Shown one piece after another: positions 15,304 to 31,741 of a DNA stretch of 64,000 nt. The notes below the pieces were generated by a model. The model saw only the letters and a program-made list of their open reading frames with translations. It was not told the origin of the DNA and did no database searches. Origin of the DNA: Candidatus Omnitrophota bacterium. Its GTDB lineage: Bacteria; Omnitrophota; Gorgyraeia; Duberdicusellales; 4484-171. How positions within the stretch are numbered: the first letter of the stretch is position 1; every line of letters starts with the position of its first letter. The position numbers were made by a program, and so were the translations under genes. The stretch lies in NCBI GenBank assembly GCA_021735655.1, contig JAIPGM010000003.1, forward strand, positions 128,001-192,000, in the 5' to 3' direction.

Positions 15304-16290
15304 ATGTTTGAAGAAGACTTTAGAAATACGGTAAAAAAATACTCTCTTTTGAAAAAAAGGGATAAGGTGCTTTTGGGAGTTTCTGGCGGACCAGATTCAC
15401 TCTGCTTGCTTCAGCTTTTTTTAAAATTGCAGAAAGAATACTCCCTAAAGTTGATCTGCCTGCATTTTAACCACCAGCTGCGTAAAGAGGCCGATAGCGA
15501 GGAGGATTTCGTAAGGCGAGCTTGCAAGCGTTTGGGTGTTGAACTTATCTCAGAAAGTAAGCCGGTTAATGATTTTTTTAAAGGGGATTCCTTAGAACAG
15601 ACGGCCAGAAACTTAAGATTTGATTTTTTCTTAAAACTTTCCCGACAGACTAAATTTAAAAAAATTGCCTTGGCTCACCATAAAGATGATTTAGTGGAAA
15701 CAGTTTTGATGCGTCTGATTCGTGGCTCAGGTTTAAAAGGTTTGCAGGGTTTCTTGCCAAAATCAAAATTCAGAAGCCTTACGGTTATTAGACCGCTGAT
15801 TGAATTAACGAAGAGTGATATTTTGAAATGGCTTAAACAAAACAAAATCGACTATTGTCTTGATCAGAGCAATTTTGAAGATAAGTTTTTTCGCAACCGT
15901 ATACGTTCAAAGCTTATGCCTTTGCTCAAGGAGCTTAATCCGAATATAGTTAACAATATTTATAATGCGGCCAGAACTATTTCTCTCGACTACTCTTTTT
16001 TGTATAGCTTTTCGCACCAGGCTTTTTTAGCCCTTAAGATGAAAGAAGGCAAGGGTAGCATTTCTTTAAGGCTTACTGGCCTCAAGGAATTACCTAAGGC
16101 AATTTTTGCTAATGTAATTAGAATTGCGATTGAAGATTTACAAGGACACACTCGAAGGTTAGAAGCCAAGCATTTAGTTGAGGTTGATGATTTAGTTGCC
16201 AAGCGGCCTCTGGGCAGTATTGTTAATCTACCATTTTTGATGGTGAAAAAAGAGCAAAATTCTCTACTCATTCAATCCTTGATTTTATAA
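15304..16290 (+). CDS. tilS: tRNA(Ile)-lysidine synthetase
   Basis: PP-loop LLGVSGGPDSLCLL (SGGxDS). Sits upstream of ftsH as in many bacteria. Confidence 0.8.
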   Translation: MFEEDFRNTVKKYSLLKKRDKVLLGVSGGPDSLCLLQLFLKLQKEYSLKLICLHFNHQLRKEADSEEDFVRRACKRLGVELISESKPVNDFFKGDSLEQTARNLRFDFFLKLSRQTKFKKIALAHHKDDLVETVLMRLIRGSGLKGLQGFLPKSKFRSLTVIRPLIELTKSDILKWLKQNKIDYCLDQSNFEDKFFRNRIRSKLMPLLKELNPNIVNNIYNAARTISLDYSFLYSFSHQAFLALKMKEGKGSISLRLTGLKELPKAIFANVIRIAIEDLQGHTRRLEAKHLVEVDDLVAKRPLGSIVNLPFLMVKKEQNSLLIQSLIL

Positions 16291-16314: not shown

Positions 16315-18222
16315 ATGAATCAGAAAAAAATCCCCAAAAAGACCAAGTCTCCCAATAATAATTTCCTGCGTTCAGGATTTTTTATTATGGCTATATTTTT
16401 GGGTGTTTTGTGGTTGACCAGCCTTTTTAACTCAGAGCTTAACGGCACCGTAAAGAAGCTTGCCTACAGTGAATTTTACTATAAATTAGAACATAATTTG
16501 GAGAAGCCGGAGATAAAGTCGGTCAAGATGATTGATAATTTGATTCAGGGCAATTTTACTGAAAGTGCAGGAGGCGATCGATTTTATTTACATATACCTG
16601 CGGATGATGAAGACTTGCTTGCTTTGTTGAGAAAGAATGTTGATAAATTCGAAGTAGAGCCACCGCGTACATTTCTTTCTAATATTCTATTTTCTTTAGG
16701 ACCGATAATTATTTTGATTGGATTTTTTTGGTACATGTCTTATAAGGGTAACCAAATGGGTTCTCGGGTTTGGAGTTTTGGCAAGTCCCGGGCCAAGCTT
16801 ATGGATAAGGAAAAAACAACCCGGGTTACTTTTAATGATGTTGCCGGAATCGACGAAGCCAAAGAAGAACTCGAAGAGGTGATTGATTTTTTAAAAGATC
16901 CTAAAAAATTTCAGCGCTTAGGCGGAAGATTCCCTAAGGGAGTGTTGTTAGTCGGACCTCCTGGTTGTGGAAAGACTCTATTGGCTAAGGCTGTTGCTGG
17001 GGAAGCCAAGGTTCCTTTTTATAGCATTAGTGGTTCAGATTTTGTCGAGATGTTTGTCGGAGTAGGAGCTTCCCGAGTGCGGGATCTTTTTGAGCAGGCT
17101 AAAAAAGCCGCTAAAAGCGAGAGTAAGGGATGCATTATTTTTATTGATGAAATAGATGCTGTCGGTCGCCAGCGTTTTTCCGGAGTCGGCGGAGGCCATG
17201 ACGAGCGAGAGCAAACTCTAAATCAGCTATTGACTGAAATGGATGGTTTTCAGACTGAGATCGGAGTTATTGTTATGGCTGCAACCAATCGACCGGATGT
17301 TTTAGACCCGGCTTTGCTTCGTCCTGGGCGCTTTGATCGTCATGTTGTTATTTATGCTCCCGATATTCAGGGAAGAGAGGGAATTCTAAAGGTTCATACT
17401 CGTAAAATTCGTCTAGCCAAAAAAATTGACTTAAAAACAATTGCTCAAAAAACGCCTGGATTTTCGGGAGCTGATTTAGAGAATCTTTGCAATGAGGCTG
17501 CTTTATTGGCAGCTAGACATGGTAAGGAATCGGTAGAGCAGTCAGAGCTTGAAGAATCAATTGAGCGGGTAATAATGGGTCCGGAGAAAAAGAGCCGAAT
17601 AATTTCTAAGCGGGAAAAAGAACTAACTGCTTACCATGAAGCTGGCCATACGATACTGTCTTTATTAATTCCGGAAGTTGATTCTTTGTCCAAGGTTTCG
17701 ATAATACCTCGAGGCATGGCTGGCGGTTATACTTTTACTCCGCCGCGTGAGGATCGTTGGCATAGATCTAAAAAAGAGCTTCTTGGTACAATAACCGTGA
17801 TGCTTGGCGGGAGGGTGTCCGAAGAGGTAAATCTAGATGACATTACGACTGGAGCGAGTGACGATTTGACTAAAGTAACTCAAATTGCTCGCAAGATGAT
17901 TTGCGACTACGGAATGAGTGAACGATTAGGTAGCTATGCTCTTGGTTCAAACCAAGGGCCAATATTTTTAGGTCGCGACTTAATTAGAGAAAAAGACTAC
18001 AGCGAAGATACTGCTAAAATAATTGATGAGGAAGTTAAGCGGATTGTTGGTGAGTGCTATACAAGAGCCAAACAACTTATTACTGATAATAAAGCCAAGC
18101 TAAAAATATTAGCTGAAGCCTTGCTCGAAAAAGAAGTATTAGATGCCAAGGAAGTCAAACGCCTAATCGGTTTTAAAGATGAGGATAACCCCAGTAGTAA
18201 TAAAAAACGAACAAAAAGCTAG
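16315..18222 (+). CDS. ftsH: ATP-dependent zinc metalloprotease FtsH
   Basis: Two N-terminal TM segments. AAA Walker A GPPGCGKT. Walker B/SRH region. HEAGH zinc motif. Confidence 0.92.
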
Positions 18223-18229
18223 AGAGCTG

Positions 18230-19375
18230 ATGAGTTCTTTAGGTGTGAGTCGCCAAGGAGTAAGAATCCTGTCTCCGAAGAGCGTCTATTCGGTTTTTAA
18301 AATTGAAGGGATTAAGTCTTGGGAGGCTAATATTCTTAAGCAGCATCTTCTTTCTCAGGGTTCAGATGCCGCCATAGAGAGAGATGCTTTGGTAAAAGAT
18401 ATAAGGACTGGAGCTTTGATCTTTGGCAGTTTCAGTCAGTTAAAAAATCTCTGTAAAAAACTTAAAAACCAGCCGTTTAATTTAAAAGAGATATCGCAAA
18501 CTTTGTCATTTTATTTAGATAATATTCATAAAGAAACTTATATTTTTAGGGCCAACAATAAGCAGCTCAAAATAAATAAGCCATTGGTTTGTGGAATTAT
18601 TAATATGACTCCGGATTCATTTTTTCAAGACGGGCTGCTTAACAAAGATCAGAAATATATACTAGAAAGAGTGGAAAAGATGCTTAAAGCCGGAGCTAAG
18701 ATGATTGATATCGGTGGCGAGTCAACACGGCCATTTTCAAAGCCAATAACCGAAAAAGAAGAATTAGCTAGAGTAATTCCAACCCTTAAGGCGATAAGGA
18801 AGCGTTTCAGGAAAGTTTTAATTTCTCTAGATAGCTATAAATATTTAGTGGTTAAAGCGGCCGCAGCTGAAGGTGTTGATTTAATCAATGATATTACTGC
18901 TTTAAACGGGGATTTGCGAAAAAGTTCAGTGATTAAGAACTATAAGCTGGGTTGTGTTCTTATGCATATGAAAGGTAAACCTCGAGATATGCAGAAAAAT
19001 CCTCATTATAAAGATGTTATTAGTGAGGAGTTAGATTTTTTTAAGGAGAGATTACAGTTTTGTCAGCGAATTGGTATAGATAAAGAACGGATAATGATTG
19101 ATCCGGGGATAGGTTTTGGTAAAGATTTAAACGATAACCTTAAGCTTATCAATCAGCTTTATAAATTTAAGGTTTTTGGTTTGCCTTTGTTTTTGGGTTT
19201 GTCGCGGAAGTCTTTTATTGGTAAAATACTTAAAAGTGAACCTGGTGAACGTTTAGTTGGTACTCTTTCAGCGACCATCCTTAGCGTGGGCCAAGGAGCA
19301 AACATTTTACGTACTCATGACGTTGCTGAGACGGTACAAGCTTTAAAAGTAGCTTCAAAAATAACCAATAACTAA
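18230..19375 (+). CDS. folP: dihydropteroate synthase with ~115-130 aa N-terminal extension of unknown function
   Basis: Pterin-binding region INMTPDSFFQDG…IDIGGESTRP…GFGK. Alternative upstream ATG at 18179 overlaps ftsH. The N-terminal extension has no motif I recognise. Confidence 0.8.
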   Translation: MSSLGVSRQGVRILSPKSVYSVFKIEGIKSWEANILKQHLLSQGSDAAIERDALVKDIRTGALIFGSFSQLKNLCKKLKNQPFNLKEISQTLSFYLDNIHKETYIFRANNKQLKINKPLVCGIINMTPDSFFQDGLLNKDQKYILERVEKMLKAGAKMIDIGGESTRPFSKPITEKEELARVIPTLKAIRKRFRKVLISLDSYKYLVVKAAAAEGVDLINDITALNGDLRKSSVIKNYKLGCVLMHMKGKPRDMQKNPHYKDVISEELDFFKERLQFCQRIGIDKERIMIDPGIGFGKDLNDNLKLINQLYKFKVFGLPLFLGLSRKSFIGKILKSEPGERLVGTLSATILSVGQGANILRTHDVAETVQALKVASKITNN

Positions 19376-20136
19376 TGGATTTTATTTTCAGACCTTTCAA
19401 TTGGAAAAATATTGTTGAGATAATAATTCTCTGGTTTGTTATCTACCGGATTTTTATTTTCCTGAAAGGCACGAAAGCCTTTTACCTTTTGCGAGGTATA
19501 ATATTTTTAGTAATTGCCCTGATAGCTTTTCATTTTTTGAGTTTTCCGGTGTTAACTAGATTGTTGGCTTATTTCTTTGCCTTTTTTATTATTTTAGTAG
19601 TTATTATTTTCCAGCCTGAGCTGCGGGAGGGTCTTATCCATTTAGGCAAACGTCATATTTTTTACATAGAACCAAAGAGAGAGGAGATCGAAAATACCTT
19701 GCGCGAAATTGTTGCCACTTCTGGTACTCTTTCACGGAAAAAAGTAGGCGCTTTAATTGCTATTAAAAGAGAAATTGCCCTTAAAAAGTTTGTTGAAAGC
19801 GGTGTAATTTTAAATGCTGACCTTACTTCCGAATTACTTCAAAATATTTTTTATCCTTTTGCCCCTTTGCATGACGGTGGAGTTATTGTCGAGGGAACAA
19901 AAGTAGTAGCATCTTCCTGCCTTTTTCCTCTTAGCGAGAATTCGAGCCTGGAGAAAACATTGGGAATGCGTCATCGGGCAGCAGTAGGTCTTTCTGAGCA
20001 TTCTGATGCAGTGGTAGTAGTTGTCTCTGAAGAAAATGGTTCAATTTCTTTAGCAATTAATGGACAGCTATCAAGAAATCTTGCACCTAATGACTTACTA
20101 ACAATTTTGAAAGGGCAATTTACAAAATCTCGCTAG
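19375..20136 (+). CDS. cdaA: diadenylate cyclase CdaA (c-di-AMP synthase)
   Basis: Three N-terminal TM helices. DAC domain motifs DGGVIVEG and RHRAAVGLSE. Confidence 0.85.
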   Translation: MDFIFRPFNWKNIVEIIILWFVIYRIFIFLKGTKAFYLLRGIIFLVIALIAFHFLSFPVLTRLLAYFFAFFIILVVIIFQPELREGLIHLGKRHIFYIEPKREEIENTLREIVATSGTLSRKKVGALIAIKREIALKKFVESGVILNADLTSELLQNIFYPFAPLHDGGVIVEGTKVVASSCLFPLSENSSLEKTLGMRHRAAVGLSEHSDAVVVVVSEENGSISLAINGQLSRNLAPNDLLTILKGQFTKSR

Positions 20137-20177
20137 ACTTAAGATTAAAATGAATAATAAAACTAGAGAGGTGGTTT

Positions 20178-20315
20178 ATGGAGATTTTAAAAAAGATCAA
20201 TATTAAAAAAGCAATTACCCATAATTTTTGGCTTAAGTTGTTAGCTTTGATTCTTGCTGTTTTTGTTTGGCTATACGTAGCGGCAACTATTACTGGCGGG
20301 GGGCAACCAGCTTGA
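20178..20315 (+). pseudogene. 45-codon ORF resembling the N-terminal TM segment of CdaR (YbbR-domain CdaA regulator), apparently truncated
   Basis: AGAGAGG RBS then ATG at 20178. MEILKKINIKKAITHNFWLKLLALILAVFVWLYVAAT matches the N..W.(L/V)K(L/I)(L/I)AL(L/I).A.(F/L).(W/Y).(V/A) start of CdaR proteins. Stop after 45 codons. No YbbR repeats follow. Confidence 0.35.
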
Positions 20316-21037
20316 AATTAGGTGTCAATGTTGACCACGTTGCTACCTTGCGAAAAGCGAGGGGCACGAAATACCCTGATCCAGTGGTGGCAGCACTTTG
20401 CGCTGAATATGCTGGTTGCGATTCTATAGTTGTTCATGTCAGAGAGGATCGGCGGCATATAACTGAACGTGATGCGATCTTGATTAAACAGGCAGTAAAG
20501 GTGCCGCTTAATTTAGAGATGTCGGTAAATAAAGGCATCGTTGATTTTGCGCTAACGCTTCTTCCTGCCCAGGCGACTTTAGTTCCTGAGCGAAGATTGG
20601 AGCTAACTACTGAAGGCGGGCTGGACCTTTTAAAAAATACATCCAAGATTGTAAAGGCGATAGCTAGATTGAAAAACGCCGGAATAAGAATAAGTTTATT
20701 TATTGATCCGATAAAAAGGCAGATAACTAGAGCTAAAGAGCTAGGGGTTGATTTAATCGAGATTAATACTGGTAAATATTCAGAAAGCAAAACTCAGAGT
20801 GCTTTTAGGGTTCAGTTAACCAAGATAAAGGAAGCAGTAAAATTTGCTAGAGTTAAGAAATTAACAGTTGCCGCCGGTCATGGCCTCGATTATGAAAACA
20901 CTAAATCGATTGTTAAGCTAAAAGCAATTGATGAGCTTAATATTGGCCATTCAATAGTTTCTCGAGCAGTGTTAGTAGGCTTTCCGGTAGCAGTCAGCGA
21001 AATGATTTTTTTAATTAAAGGAAAGAGTAAACTATGA
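20312..21037 (+). CDS. pdxJ: pyridoxine 5'-phosphate synthase
   Basis: (M)KLGVNVDHVATLRKARG…YPDPV…AGCDSIVVHVREDRRHI classic PdxJ N-terminus. Probable TTG start at 20312, which overlaps the stop of the CdaR-like fragment. An ATG at 20267 would add an atypical 15-aa extension. Confidence 0.85.
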   Translation: MKLGVNVDHVATLRKARGTKYPDPVVAALCAEYAGCDSIVVHVREDRRHITERDAILIKQAVKVPLNLEMSVNKGIVDFALTLLPAQATLVPERRLELTTEGGLDLLKNTSKIVKAIARLKNAGIRISLFIDPIKRQITRAKELGVDLIEINTGKYSESKTQSAFRVQLTKIKEAVKFARVKKLTVAAGHGLDYENTKSIVKLKAIDELNIGHSIVSRAVLVGFPVAVSEMIFLIKGKSKL

Positions 21038-21396
21038 TAGTTGGCGTTGGTATAGATATGATAAAGATAGAGAAGATTAAATCAGCATTCGAGAAGTGGG
21101 GAGATGCTTTTCGGAATCGAGTTTTTAACGATGAGGAACTTGAGAATATTCCCCAAGGTAAGATGTACTATCAGCGTCTGGCGGCTCGTTTTGCAGCCAA
21201 AGAGGCGGTAATAAAAGCTATTTCCAAGGAACACCCCTTGGCCTTAACTGATATTATTGTTTTAAATAGAGAAAACGGAGCACCATATTGTAAATTTAAA
21301 AAAGATATTGGTGTTGATATTTTTCTTTCGATAACCCACATTGAAGACTATGCGGTTGCCTGTGCAGTTGCTCAAAAGGAATCCCGAGACACATAA
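21034..21396 (+). CDS. acpS: holo-[acyl-carrier-protein] synthase
   Basis: MIVGVGIDMIKIEKI… AcpS N-terminus. 120 aa. 4-nt overlap with pdxJ, the same order as the E. coli pdxJ-acpS pair. Confidence 0.8.
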   Translation: MIVGVGIDMIKIEKIKSAFEKWGDAFRNRVFNDEELENIPQGKMYYQRLAARFAAKEAVIKAISKEHPLALTDIIVLNRENGAPYCKFKKDIGVDIFLSITHIEDYAVACAVAQKESRDT

Positions 21397-22198
21397 GGGG
21401 GATTACGGATGCGTTTTGATTATTGGGGCCTCTTTAGGCCTGACTGGAGCAGTCTGCCTATCAGCCAGAGCAGCTTTGAAAATTGGCGCTGGCTTAGTTA
21501 GGGTAGGCGTACCTAAGTCATTAAATAATATTTTTGAAATTAAGCTAACTGAGGAGATGAGCTTACCGCTTGCCGATAAGGGAGGTTCACTCACTGAAAG
21601 CGCTTTTTCCCAAATTGAAAAAGTTTTAGATAAGGTTGATGTCTTAGTCATCGGTCCGGGAGCCAGCCTAGCTAACCCAACCAGAAAACTAATTTTAAGA
21701 ATAATTAGAGATGTCGATAAACCGATAGTTATTGATGCTGATGCAATAAGTGCCTTAGCTTCTGATTTAAGTGTTTTAGATAAAAGAAAGACTAAGCAGT
21801 TAATTATTACTCCTCATTATCAGGAATTCTCGAGGCTGGTTAAGGTTGATATTGAAGAAATCAAAAAAAATAGAAAAGAGCTTGCAGGGAACTTTGCTCT
21901 TAGGTATAATCTAACCCTTGTTCTTAAGGGTAATCGTAGCTTAGTAGTTCGCAATAAAGAGTTTTTTGAAAATGACAGCGGAAATGCCGGAATGGCGACA
22001 GCTGGGTCAGGTGATGTTTTAAGCGGGATAATTGCTGGCTTAGTTGCTCAAGGATTAAAACCTTTTGAGGCAGCAAAGCTGGGAGTGTATTTGCATGGTT
22101 TAAGCGGTGACTTGGCCGTTAAAGATAAGACCGAAAGCTGTCTAATTGCTTCTGATTTAATCGACTATTTGCCTCAAGCTATTAAAAGTTCTTTGTAA
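21341..22198 (+). CDS. nnrD: ADP-dependent (S)-NAD(P)H-hydrate dehydratase (YjeF C-terminal domain)
   Basis: HKGDYG.VLIIGAS…G…GSGDVLSGIIAGL motifs. The exact start is uncertain because it overlaps the acpS 3' end. Confidence 0.8.
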   Translation: MKTMRLPVQLLKRNPETHKGDYGCVLIIGASLGLTGAVCLSARAALKIGAGLVRVGVPKSLNNIFEIKLTEEMSLPLADKGGSLTESAFSQIEKVLDKVDVLVIGPGASLANPTRKLILRIIRDVDKPIVIDADAISALASDLSVLDKRKTKQLIITPHYQEFSRLVKVDIEEIKKNRKELAGNFALRYNLTLVLKGNRSLVVRNKEFFENDSGNAGMATAGSGDVLSGIIAGLVAQGLKPFEAAKLGVYLHGLSGDLAVKDKTESCLIASDLIDYLPQAIKSSL

Positions 22199-22213: not shown

Positions 22214-22287
22214 GCCTAGGTAGCTCAATCTGGCAGAGCACCTCACTTGTAATGAGGATGTTGGAGGTTCGATTCCTCTCCTAGGCT
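22214..22287 (+). tRNA. tRNA-Thr (UGU)
   Basis: Manual cloverleaf. Acceptor GCCTAGG/CCTAGGC. Anticodon stem CCTCA/TGAGG with loop CTTGTAA. T-loop TTCGATT. Confidence 0.85.
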
Positions 22288-22296
22288 CGTATTTTA

Positions 22297-22379
22297 GGGC
22301 AGGTACCCAAGCGGCCAAAGGGGACAGACTGTAAATCTGTTGTGCTTGCACTTCGAAGGTTCAAATCCTTCCCTGCCCA
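22297..22379 (+). tRNA. tRNA-Tyr (GUA), type II with long variable arm
   Basis: Acceptor GGGCAGG/CCTGCCC. Anticodon loop CTGTAAA. Long variable arm. T-arm GAAGG-TTCAAAT-CCTTC. Confidence 0.85.
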
Positions 22380-22396
22380 TTTTTTAAAGATTGATT

Positions 22397-22467
22397 GCGG
22401 GCGTAGTTCAGTGGTAGAACTCCAGCTTTCCAAGCTGGTCATGTCGGTTCGATTCCGATCGCCCGCT
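22397..22467 (+). tRNA. tRNA-Gly (UCC)
   Basis: Acceptor GCGGGCG/CGCCCGC. Anticodon stem CCAGC/GCTGG with loop TTTCCAA. T-loop TTCGATT. Confidence 0.85.
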
Positions 22468-24254: not shown

Positions 24255-24500
24255 ATGAGAAGTTTAATTTGCATGTTATTGTCTGCAATATTTTTGGTAG
24301 GCTGTGTTGCTTTTGTTGATGAGAGCTCCGAAGGGAGAAAGGTTTATTCTCTTCTCCCTAGCAACAGGGAAGCTTTGTATATACTTGATCAAACTAGCCA
24401 GAAGACCCCGGATAAAGAGTTCGAAATCAAGTGGTCAGAGAAGCTTAAATGGCCGGAGAAGCTTAAGTGGCCGGAGAAGCTTAAGTGGCCAAATAATTAG
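24255..24500 (+). CDS. small lipoprotein with C-terminal (EKLKWP)x3 tandem repeat
   Basis: Lipobox FLVGC. GGAGG RBS. C-terminus encoded by three 18-bp tandem DNA repeats. Confidence 0.45.
   Translation: MRSLICMLLSAIFLVGCVAFVDESSEGRKVYSLLPSNREALYILDQTSQKTPDKEFEIKWSEKLKWPEKLKWPEKLKWPNN
24438..24491 (+). repeat. 3 x 18-bp near-perfect tandem repeat (gagaagcttaa[a/g]tggcc[g/a])
   Basis: Copies at 24438-24455, 24456-24473 and 24474-24491 with 1-2 mismatches. Lies inside the CDS, in frame. Confidence 0.7.
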
Positions 24501-24711: not shown

Positions 24712-24787
24712 CGGGAGGTGGCGCAGCCTGGATTAGCGCACTTGCATGGGGTGCAAGGGGTCGTGGGTTCGAATCCCACTCTCCCGA
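24712..24787 (+). tRNA. tRNA-Pro (GGG)
   Basis: Acceptor CGGGAGG/TCTCCCG (one G-U pair). Anticodon stem CTTGC/GCAAG with loop ATGGGGT and G37. T-arm GTGGG-TTCGAAT-CCCAC. Discriminator A, with CCA encoded immediately after (to 24790). Confidence 0.8.
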
Positions 24788-24818
24788 CCAGTAGTTTAAA
24801 TTAAATAAGGAGGCAACA

Positions 24819-31059: not shown

Positions 31060-31366
31060 ATATTATTTTCTTATGGCAAAGGCCATATTTGCAGGTAAAA
31101 TGGGGCTATTTTGGCTGAAAACGTTTACAGTATTTCTTTGTTATACCCTGTTCAGGGTGGTTAAATCCATGGTATATAAGAGGTGTTAAAGCGTTCTTTG
31201 GAATTGAATCTCGTAGCGAAAAGGCAAACCTCAAGAAATTGTGGGGCGCAAAGCTCAAAGAGCCTAAAGGCCAAGTAAGTTCAAATGGCTAGGGTAGTCA
31301 GCTGCCGAATTATCTGATTAAGTTGGATAGGTAACCCATAGTCTTTTAGCTATGGGTTTTTTTGTT
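31060..31366 (+). ncRNA. candidate structured RNA, or long 5' leader of ORF 31415..31741, ending in an intrinsic terminator (identity unknown)
   Basis: ~350-nt non-coding gap between rpmB and the paralog-B gene. It contains several short hairpins and ends in a strong terminator 50 nt before the RBS. No confident match to tmRNA, RNase P, SRP, 6S or known riboswitch cores by eye. Confidence 0.2.
31333..31363 (+). terminator. intrinsic terminator (AACCCATAG-loop-CTATGGGTT + T7)
   Basis: 9-bp stem with an 8-nt loop followed by ttttttt at 31357-31363. Confidence 0.6.
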
Positions 31367-31414: not shown

Positions 31415-31741
31415 ATGGTTAAGAAAATCGTGGCTTTGATGTTGGTGATTGGTATATGCAGTATGAGTTTTGGTGCTTATGCGTATGATCAGAATGCAGC
31501 TACAAAACTTGCTCGTGGTATTGTCAATGGAGTTACTTCTTGGATAGAGGTTCCGAAACAAGTTTATCTAGTTTCTAAAGAGAGAGAGCCTTTAACTGGC
31601 ATAACTTATGGTATGGTTAAGGGAGTTGTTTATACGGTTTTACGGGTAACTGAAGGAGCTTATGATATAGCATCTTTTGCGATACCGCCTTATGACCAAC
31701 CACTTCTTGAACCAGAATTTGTTTTTGAAGGTTGGGAATAA
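31415..31741 (+). CDS. small secreted protein, member B of the paralogous pair (IPPY...EPEFV family)
   Basis: GGGGAGG RBS. Signal peptide (…SFGAYA/YD). Aligns with ORF 569..907 along the full length. Confidence 0.6.
   Translation: MVKKIVALMLVIGICSMSFGAYAYDQNAATKLARGIVNGVTSWIEVPKQVYLVSKEREPLTGITYGMVKGVVYTVLRVTEGAYDIASFAIPPYDQPLLEPEFVFEGWE

Follow-up and report, generated by a model that had tools for sequence, protein, structure and literature searches.

The 64,000-nucleotide (nt) stretch of Candidatus Omnitrophota DNA analysed here (contig JAIPGM010000003.1; hereafter the window) carries, directly downstream of the diadenylate cyclase gene cdaA, an open reading frame (ORF) of 45 codons (20178..20315, forward strand; ATG at 20178, TGA at 20313-20315) that is a real and conserved gene, descends from the cyclase regulator CdaR (YbbR), is linked to cdaA and encodes a predicted membrane protein with a cytoplasmic N-terminus (N-in). 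We consider it likely that this gene, referred to below as mini-cdaR, is a genuine, translated CdaR orthologue that has been stripped of its extracytoplasmic YbbR domains and whose product docks on CdaA as a modulator. We class the product as a truncated, anchor-only CdaR orthologue and not as a member of the YbbR family, because the defining domain is absent: no Pfam YbbR domain (PF07949) was found in mini-CdaR, which has only six residues beyond its helix. The control of CdaA by CdaR is an open question in cyclic di-AMP (c-di-AMP) signalling, reports of activation conflicting with reports of inhibition, and the manner in which CdaR regulates the cyclase is described as still unclear (PMC8573169). 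Our literature searches found no description of an anchor-only CdaR, nor of c-di-AMP regulation in Omnitrophota.

A short gene between cdaA and pdxJ

The cyclase gene (19375..20136, +) encodes a membrane-bound diadenylate cyclase of 253 amino acids (aa) whose membrane domain is N-terminal to the DAC domain. As judged from its matches to TIGR00159 (NCBIfam; 228.4 bits for a cutoff of 188.8), Pfam DAC (5.9e-39), Pfam CdaA_N (28.7 bits, cutoff 23.8) and Lactococcus lactis CdaA 9g69_C (5.6e-51), this protein is a bona fide CdaA. It is separated from mini-cdaR by a spacer of 41 nt in which no promoter-like or terminator-like site was found, and the Shine-Dalgarno (SD)-like sequence GAGAGGTGG (20166..20174, +) lies 4-12 nt before the ATG. 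The TGA of mini-cdaR overlaps by 4 nt (cTTGA) the TTG start of pdxJ (20312..21037, +; Pfam PdxJ 1.2e-87; TIGR00559 275 bits, passing the NCBIfam pdxJ equivalog cutoffs). We regard the TTG at 20312 as the true pdxJ start because position 1 of the Pfam profile aligns to residue 2 and orthologues begin MKLGVN there. The original prediction, made from the sequence alone, had described a short ORF with a good ribosome-binding site after cdaA that terminates where a probable TTG start of pdxJ begins; the coordinates, the SD-like sequence and the 45 codons can all be read as described, and the overlap and the PdxJ profile alignment bear out the position of its end.

The mini-CdaR peptide, which is 100% identical to protein K9L86_03435, has a lysine-rich N-terminus, predicted to be cytoplasmic, and an NFWLK motif ahead of a single predicted transmembrane helix, beyond which six residues form the outer tail; across its homologues the tail is predicted to comprise 6-10 residues on the periplasmic side. 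The net charge over 30 sequences averages +3.7 on the N-terminal and +0.7 on the C-terminal side, and the best 19-residue Kyte-Doolittle score is 2.47 for the window protein (mean 2.08 over the 30 sequences). An AlphaFold2 model built from a 121-sequence alignment shows one unbroken helix over residues 3-39, with a mean predicted local distance difference test score (pLDDT) of 74.8 that is highest over residues 21-40. A single-pass, N-in topology is thus the prediction for this protein.

Searching with CdaA, at one genome per species, returned 32 loci, of which 30 are of the Omnitrophota type (CdaA identity 62-87%); one of these (L003) stops just past cdaA, leaving 29 assessable relatives. All 29 carry a homologue of 39-51 aa between cdaA and pdxJ, free of frameshifts in every case, with the consensus xxITxNFWLKLISLIIAIIVWLYVxGEITxGxxx. 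In the alignment of these short proteins W18, K20 and G41 never vary, and N16, L19, L24, A27, W31 and Y33 reach a conservation of 90% or more. The ratio of nonsynonymous to synonymous substitutions (dN/dS, Nei-Gojobori) for the six closest pairs is 0.08 (L018/L019), 0.09 (L023/L028), 0.14 (window/L001), 0.18 (L029/L030), 0.32 (L008/L009) and 0.33 (L017/L021), while synonymous sites are close to saturation overall (median proportion of synonymous differences, pS, 0.73) and entropy at the three codon positions is 0.97/0.56/1.38. SD-like sequences of the GAGG/GGAGG type precede most of the copies in relatives. We take the 45-codon ORF to be a genuine gene under purifying selection and not a frame that is open by chance or a recent pseudogene.

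Searched singly, the 45-aa peptide retrieved only homologues of 44-45 aa; its relation to long CdaR proteins emerged only from profile searches. The matches listed from a database of 5.8 billion proteins included at least 120 clusters (90% identity), all of 39-63 aa and, where named, from Omnitrophota. The family is old and widely conserved throughout a large group of this phylum. Four of these proteins bear the Joint Genome Institute (JGI) name 'YbbR domain-containing protein', although Pfam and NCBIfam scans of the four and of the 45-aa peptide gave nothing relevant. Proteins of this kind have been overlooked by annotation, being called 'hypothetical protein' and belonging to no Pfam or NCBIfam family.

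Descent from CdaR and variation in length

A profile built from 121 mini-CdaR sequences and searched with full HMMER against 1.84 billion representative proteins (1.84e9) gave 263 matches at E<=1e-3. Among the best 150 of these 263 were 39 proteins of at least 100 aa, all of which matched inside their first ~55 residues (E 3e-9 to 5e-5), and 30 of the 39 contain Pfam YbbR (best E 1.5e-22). Within the window, a CdaR/YbbR hidden Markov model (HMM) compared with all 447 stop-to-stop segments had the mini-cdaR ORF as its sole match (1.2e-15); the CdaR HMM gave no match at the outgroup loci L031 and L032. Gene order provides an independent line of evidence. Locus L039 reads tilS-ftsH-folP-cdaA-X-pdxJ-yjeF with a 316-aa YbbR protein at X, and L034-L036 read dnaB-cdaA-X-pdxJ-acpS-Carb_kinase with a 323-aa YbbR protein (RKY39881.1, from a Candidatus Omnitrophota metagenome-assembled genome, MAG) in the same place. 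A 153-aa protein with one YbbR domain occupies the slot in L033 (ftsH-folP-cdaA-X-pdxJ), and a 112-aa protein occupies it in L037 (cdaA-X-pdxJ). Because YbbR proteins fill the identical cdaA-X-pdxJ slot, mini-CdaR is the positional orthologue of CdaR minus its ectodomain. The residues common to the short proteins and full-length CdaR (N, K, A and W) are those that were kept, and they map at the cytoplasmic membrane interface and in the helix. The proposal in the original prediction that the peptide resembles the N-terminal membrane anchor of CdaR/YbbR is therefore upheld, both by the profile matches to YbbR-protein N-termini and by the full-length YbbR proteins of the same slot. Its suggestion that CdaR had decayed to a mini-protein holds as far as the reduction to an anchor is concerned; the gene, however, is not a decaying remnant of this one genome but part of an old family under selection.

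A neighbour-joining tree of CdaA, the deep nodes of which are uncertain, places the window and the 29 relatives, all of which have the short form, in one clade (60/60 bootstraps). CdaR-like ORFs directly after cdaA also occur in the divergent loci L041-L044, including short forms in a folP-cdaA-X-pdxJ-acpS slot that measure 46 aa in L041, 65 aa in L042 and 32 aa in L044. The CdaA proteins of these divergent loci branch with lineages that keep a CdaR of 112-323 aa: L042, with its 65-aa form, groups with L037 and L033 (112 and 153 aa) in 50/60 bootstraps. A single truncation origin of all short forms was rejected, their monophyly being recovered in 0/100 bootstraps of the CdaA neighbour-joining tree. 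Very short forms of 30-33 aa, that of L044 (3001-3099) among them, lie directly before pdxJ in L044, L051, L053 and L056 (e.g. MKNWFSSNLVLKLVALVLAIITWFYVKGMH) and terminate 4-6 residues past the helix.

Eighty metagenome loci were also sampled by CdaA, of which about 67 were assessable with rough ORF calling of our own. A CdaR-like ORF of at most 70 aa was present in ~15 of the ~67, one of 130-180 aa in 12, one of 230-330 aa in 8 and one of at least 380 aa in 28, the last mostly Firmicutes-like with glmM next; none was detected in 4. Three loci have the order cdaA-mini-cdaR-glmM and so carry the short form within the canonical operon (L088, 47 aa; L092, 58 aa; L117, 51 aa), and the peptide of L117 has exact counterparts among the proteins of Verrucomicrobiota MAGs (MBV8351963.1 and others). 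Anchor-only CdaR thus appears to extend beyond Omnitrophota and beyond the pdxJ context, and the reduction of the ectodomain looks recurrent or stepwise rather than a one-off event. The 90%-identity cluster that contains this 51-aa Verrucomicrobiota protein also lists an NAD(P)/FAD-dependent oxidoreductase of 406 aa from Tissierellia (MDO5301002.1), probably through a clustering artefact of the protein collection.

Proposed role and alternative explanations

According to PMC8573169, which cites Gibhardt 2020, CdaR contacts CdaA via the transmembrane region of the cyclase; the contact is placed in this region by PMC8316131 as well, and CdaA needs to be embedded in the membrane for efficient synthesis (PMC11686323). 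In the mechanism that we propose, mini-CdaR would be produced, next after CdaA, from the gene string tilS-ftsH-folP-cdaA-X-pdxJ-acpS-nnrD, and its helix and NFWLK motif would dock on the N-terminal membrane domain of CdaA, where full-length CdaR contacts the cyclase. As a constitutive subunit or modulator in the membrane, it could affect the stability, oligomeric state or basal activity of the enzyme. Wall sensing has been ascribed to the ectodomain and disordered region of CdaR (Brogan 2025, as cited in bioRxiv 10.64898/2026.09.06.749708). Since mini-CdaR has neither a YbbR domain nor the wall-sensing ectodomain of Firmicutes CdaR, it cannot sense the wall in the manner proposed there, and no cell-wall-sensing input would be expected through it. 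More tentatively, we suggest that the juxtamembrane N-x-W-x-K motif and helix may be an ancestral CdaR module that suffices to bind and regulate CdaA, the ectodomain being optional and shed repeatedly in the Planctomycetes-Verrucomicrobia-Chlamydiae (PVC) group, leaving the cyclase with a micro-protein as an obligate subunit. Examples from this group are the Omnitrophota forms of 30-68 aa before pdxJ and the Verrucomicrobiota-type forms of 47-58 aa before glmM. If the module is indeed sufficient, these naturally truncated forms mark out the smallest CdaA-CdaR interface, a goal pursued since 2013. Purifying selection in a large family that keeps only the motif and helix argues for a function of that segment in its own right. 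The family offers a clean natural dissection of the regulator-cyclase interface; it points to N16, W18, L19, K20, A27 and W31 as residues for mutation, and the 45-aa peptide is directly testable for binding and for an effect on the cyclase.

Like CdaR/YbbR of Bacillus subtilis (YbbR) and Listeria monocytogenes (Lmo2119), mini-CdaR is encoded directly after cdaA on the same strand and is a predicted N-in single-pass protein, with a motif and helix homologous to those of the YbbR proteins that occupy the same slot. It differs from them in its length (45 aa vs ~320-520 aa) and in having neither a YbbR domain nor a disordered ectodomain. Between the two extremes stand single-domain CdaR-like proteins of 112-180 aa (such as P0151 in L033 and P0190 in L038), which share the NFWLK motif, the helix and the position after cdaA, precede either pdxJ or glmM, and keep ~70-130 extracytoplasmic residues, with one Pfam YbbR domain in P0151. 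They appear to be intermediates in the same reductive process. Bacterial micro-proteins such as KdpF, AcrZ, MgrB and MgtS, single helices of ~30-50 aa, modulate larger membrane proteins, presumably by helix-helix packing. Mini-CdaR resembles them in size, in its single helix and in being encoded beside or with its presumed partner, but it is unrelated to them in sequence and did not arise de novo but by the shortening of a multi-domain regulator.

Several points weigh against our reading. That mini-CdaR binds CdaA, or influences c-di-AMP synthesis at all, is something that we infer, and no match to a structure of a CdaA-CdaR complex was returned by the searches made. A PDB search with the mini-CdaR profile gave zero matches at E<=10; 9G69, considered as a CdaR structure, was rejected, as it contains CdaA-DAC with GlmM. 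A separate YbbR-domain protein may be encoded elsewhere in the genome, outside the 64-kb window, which covers part of a contig of 278,835 bp. Part of the conservation of the mini-CdaR tail could reflect a pdxJ ribosome-binding site embedded in it. The hhalign comparison of the short with the long proteins (probability 99.3%, E 2e-20; columns 9-44 of the former on columns 4-39 of the latter) speaks for descent from CdaR but is not an independent figure, the long set having been picked by N-terminal similarity. Finally, the direct similarity of the mini-CdaR profile to the N-termini of Firmicutes CdaR is at noise level and not significant. A Listeria fleischmannii N-terminal fragment scored 8.6-9.6 bits, an approximate B. 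subtilis CdaR N-terminus 5-6 bits and Bacillus-type N-termini from metagenome loci 0.6-1.2 bits, compared with the 7.0 bits that unrelated segments of the window reach at most. A YbbR fragment of Lmo2119, taken from a PDB alignment and used as a seed in a large protein search, retrieved only two proteins but supplied the Listeria N-terminal fragment of this comparison. The pattern NN.W.(K/R)IISL.LA is found at the same place in Firmicutes CdaR and is not significant alone. The alignment to CdaR N-termini that the original prediction had called for is hence significant, by profile, for YbbR proteins and at noise level for Firmicutes CdaR, and the homology of mini-CdaR to the experimentally studied CdaR proteins is transitive, by way of intermediate sequences.

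Were the ORF a non-functional pseudogene stub, left when cdaR was deleted and encoding nothing under selection, this would fit the loss of every YbbR domain, the absence of any Pfam or NCBIfam match and an ectodomain that is clearly gone. Such an origin is nonetheless extremely unlikely given a frame of 39-51 aa that is intact in 29/29 genomes even though CdaA has diverged to 62% identity, the invariance of W18 and K20, dN/dS values of 0.08-0.33 at a median pS of 0.73, and the maintenance of SD sites. An assembly or sequencing error that hides a full-length cdaR, for which the homopolymer run of six G residues near the end of the ORF (~20297-20302) is a candidate, has a practically negligible probability: with pdxJ starting right at the stop codon there is no space for more of cdaR, no frame of the window besides mini-cdaR matches the CdaR/YbbR HMM, and the same short gene is present in 29 independent assemblies, among them the complete chromosome CP070807.1 (L014). 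A frameshift at the G run that would restore cdaR was rejected, there being no YbbR-like frame to restore. The original prediction had named such an error as a possible undoing of its claim, and the agreement of the 29 assemblies and the start of pdxJ at the stop codon speak against one.

Two further explanations accept the gene as real but assign it another role. It is very unlikely that mini-cdaR is kept mainly as a coupling ORF that feeds ribosomes to pdxJ, itself started by a TTG with no independent SD sequence, the peptide being irrelevant. The 4-nt stop/start overlap recurs in 11 relatives, giving 12 of the 28 loci with a placeable pdxJ start, and G-rich tail codons make an SD-like sequence 9-17 nt ahead of that start; yet it is the amino-acid sequence that is conserved, most strongly in the motif and helix, which lie far from pdxJ. 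Loci with a gap of 14-234 nt before pdxJ conserve the peptide to the same degree, and in Verrucomicrobiota-type loci the short forms precede glmM rather than pdxJ. Because the peptide is kept across such gaps and before glmM, coupling is not the main reason for its conservation. Mini-cdaR and pdxJ are probably translationally coupled, which suggests a secondary role of the gene. We further consider it unlikely, though less remote, that mini-CdaR functions away from CdaA, having been recruited to another membrane partner such as a c-di-AMP phosphodiesterase, FtsH or a transporter. CdaR has been reported to interact with Pde1 in Streptococcus pneumoniae (bioRxiv 10.64898/2026.09.06.749708), ftsH belongs to the same gene string, and the interaction with CdaA is, again, one that we infer. 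Against another partner, the short form adjoins cdaA in every locus examined despite varied downstream (pdxJ or glmM) and upstream (folP or dnaB) genes, and the residues common with full-length CdaR (N, K, A and W) are exactly those retained.

In the window (20267-20311) and in L001, L005, L006 and L014, the pdxJ frame is open for 45-130 nt upstream of its real start, over the 3' half of mini-cdaR. A slip at the G run would join the anchor and PdxJ in one protein, a circumstance that is probably incidental.

glmM, gene order and other features of the window

The co-oriented gene cluster to which mini-cdaR belongs starts with tilS (15304..16290, +; Pfam ATP_bind_3 2.8e-57, and TilS), followed by ftsH (16315..18222, +; Pfam Peptidase_M41 4.2e-70, AAA 7.6e-46) and the dihydropteroate synthase (DHPS) gene folP (18179..19375, +; Pterin_bind 1.9e-76 over residues 138-380; TIGR01496 307 bits), the stop of which overlaps the start of cdaA (TAATG). 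Downstream of pdxJ lie the holo-acyl carrier protein synthase gene acpS (21034..21396, +; Pfam ACPS 6.2e-16), in a position that is conserved in relatives, and an NAD(P)H-hydrate dehydratase gene of the YjeF C-terminal type (nnrD; 21341..22198, +; Carb_kinase 4e-52; TIGR00196 216.5 bits), directly after which comes a cluster of tRNA-Thr, tRNA-Tyr and tRNA-Gly genes (22214-22467).

Unlike in the Firmicutes CdaR operon, the gene directly after mini-cdaR is pdxJ and not glmM. The GlmM active-site (phosphoserine-loop) motif [STG][AG]SH[NL]P is absent from all six frames of the 64-kb window, and neither a PGM_PMM nor a YbbR Pfam domain was detected in the ~46 window ORFs scanned, in agreement with the earlier statement that glmM is missing from the ftsH-folP-cdaA locus. 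The window encodes MurJ, Lnt and a lipid A acyltransferase, which speaks for a diderm envelope with peptidoglycan, and glmM is therefore expected elsewhere in the genome. The original prediction had also considered the canonical operon order to be broken. This is correct insofar as pdxJ takes the place of glmM, but the truncation of cdaR is not the cause, because loci with full-length CdaR (L034-L036 and L039) also have pdxJ at this position; an order cdaA-cdaR-pdxJ devoid of glmM is the norm of the lineage. A comparable case is that of Borrelia turicatae, in which cdaA, the ybbR gene bt0009 and acpS are co-transcribed without glmM (PMC8316131), the order in the window being cdaA, mini-cdaR, pdxJ, acpS; BT0009, however, retains a YbbR domain that the window protein lacks. 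The Firmicutes cdaA-cdaR-glmM operon is thus not a universal template.

In the FolP protein of the window, which has 398 aa, the DHPS domain begins only at residue 137, after an N-terminal extension of ~135-136 aa that has no Pfam match. The extension is conserved (FolP of 398-418 aa; MRITP...LGVS..G..IL.PK...FKIEGI) in 22/22 relatives checked from the clade with mini-CdaR and is missing in L033, L039, L042 and L044, where FolP measures 277-306 aa. Further downstream, just ahead of a tRNA-Pro gene (24712-24790), is an ORF of 81 aa (24255-24500, +) whose N-terminus resembles a lipobox (…FLVGC) and whose C-terminus repeats EKLKWP three times in tandem. At 31213-31309 (+) lies a cyclic di-GMP (c-di-GMP)-I riboswitch (60.8 bits for a gathering score of 35), after which come a hairpin and T-run (~31335-31365) and then a 108-aa ORF with a signal peptide (31415-31741). 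The product of this ORF matches TIGR04073, a family associated with the exosortase system (81.9 bits for a cutoff of 50). Together, the riboswitch and this ORF look like a c-di-GMP-controlled secreted protein.

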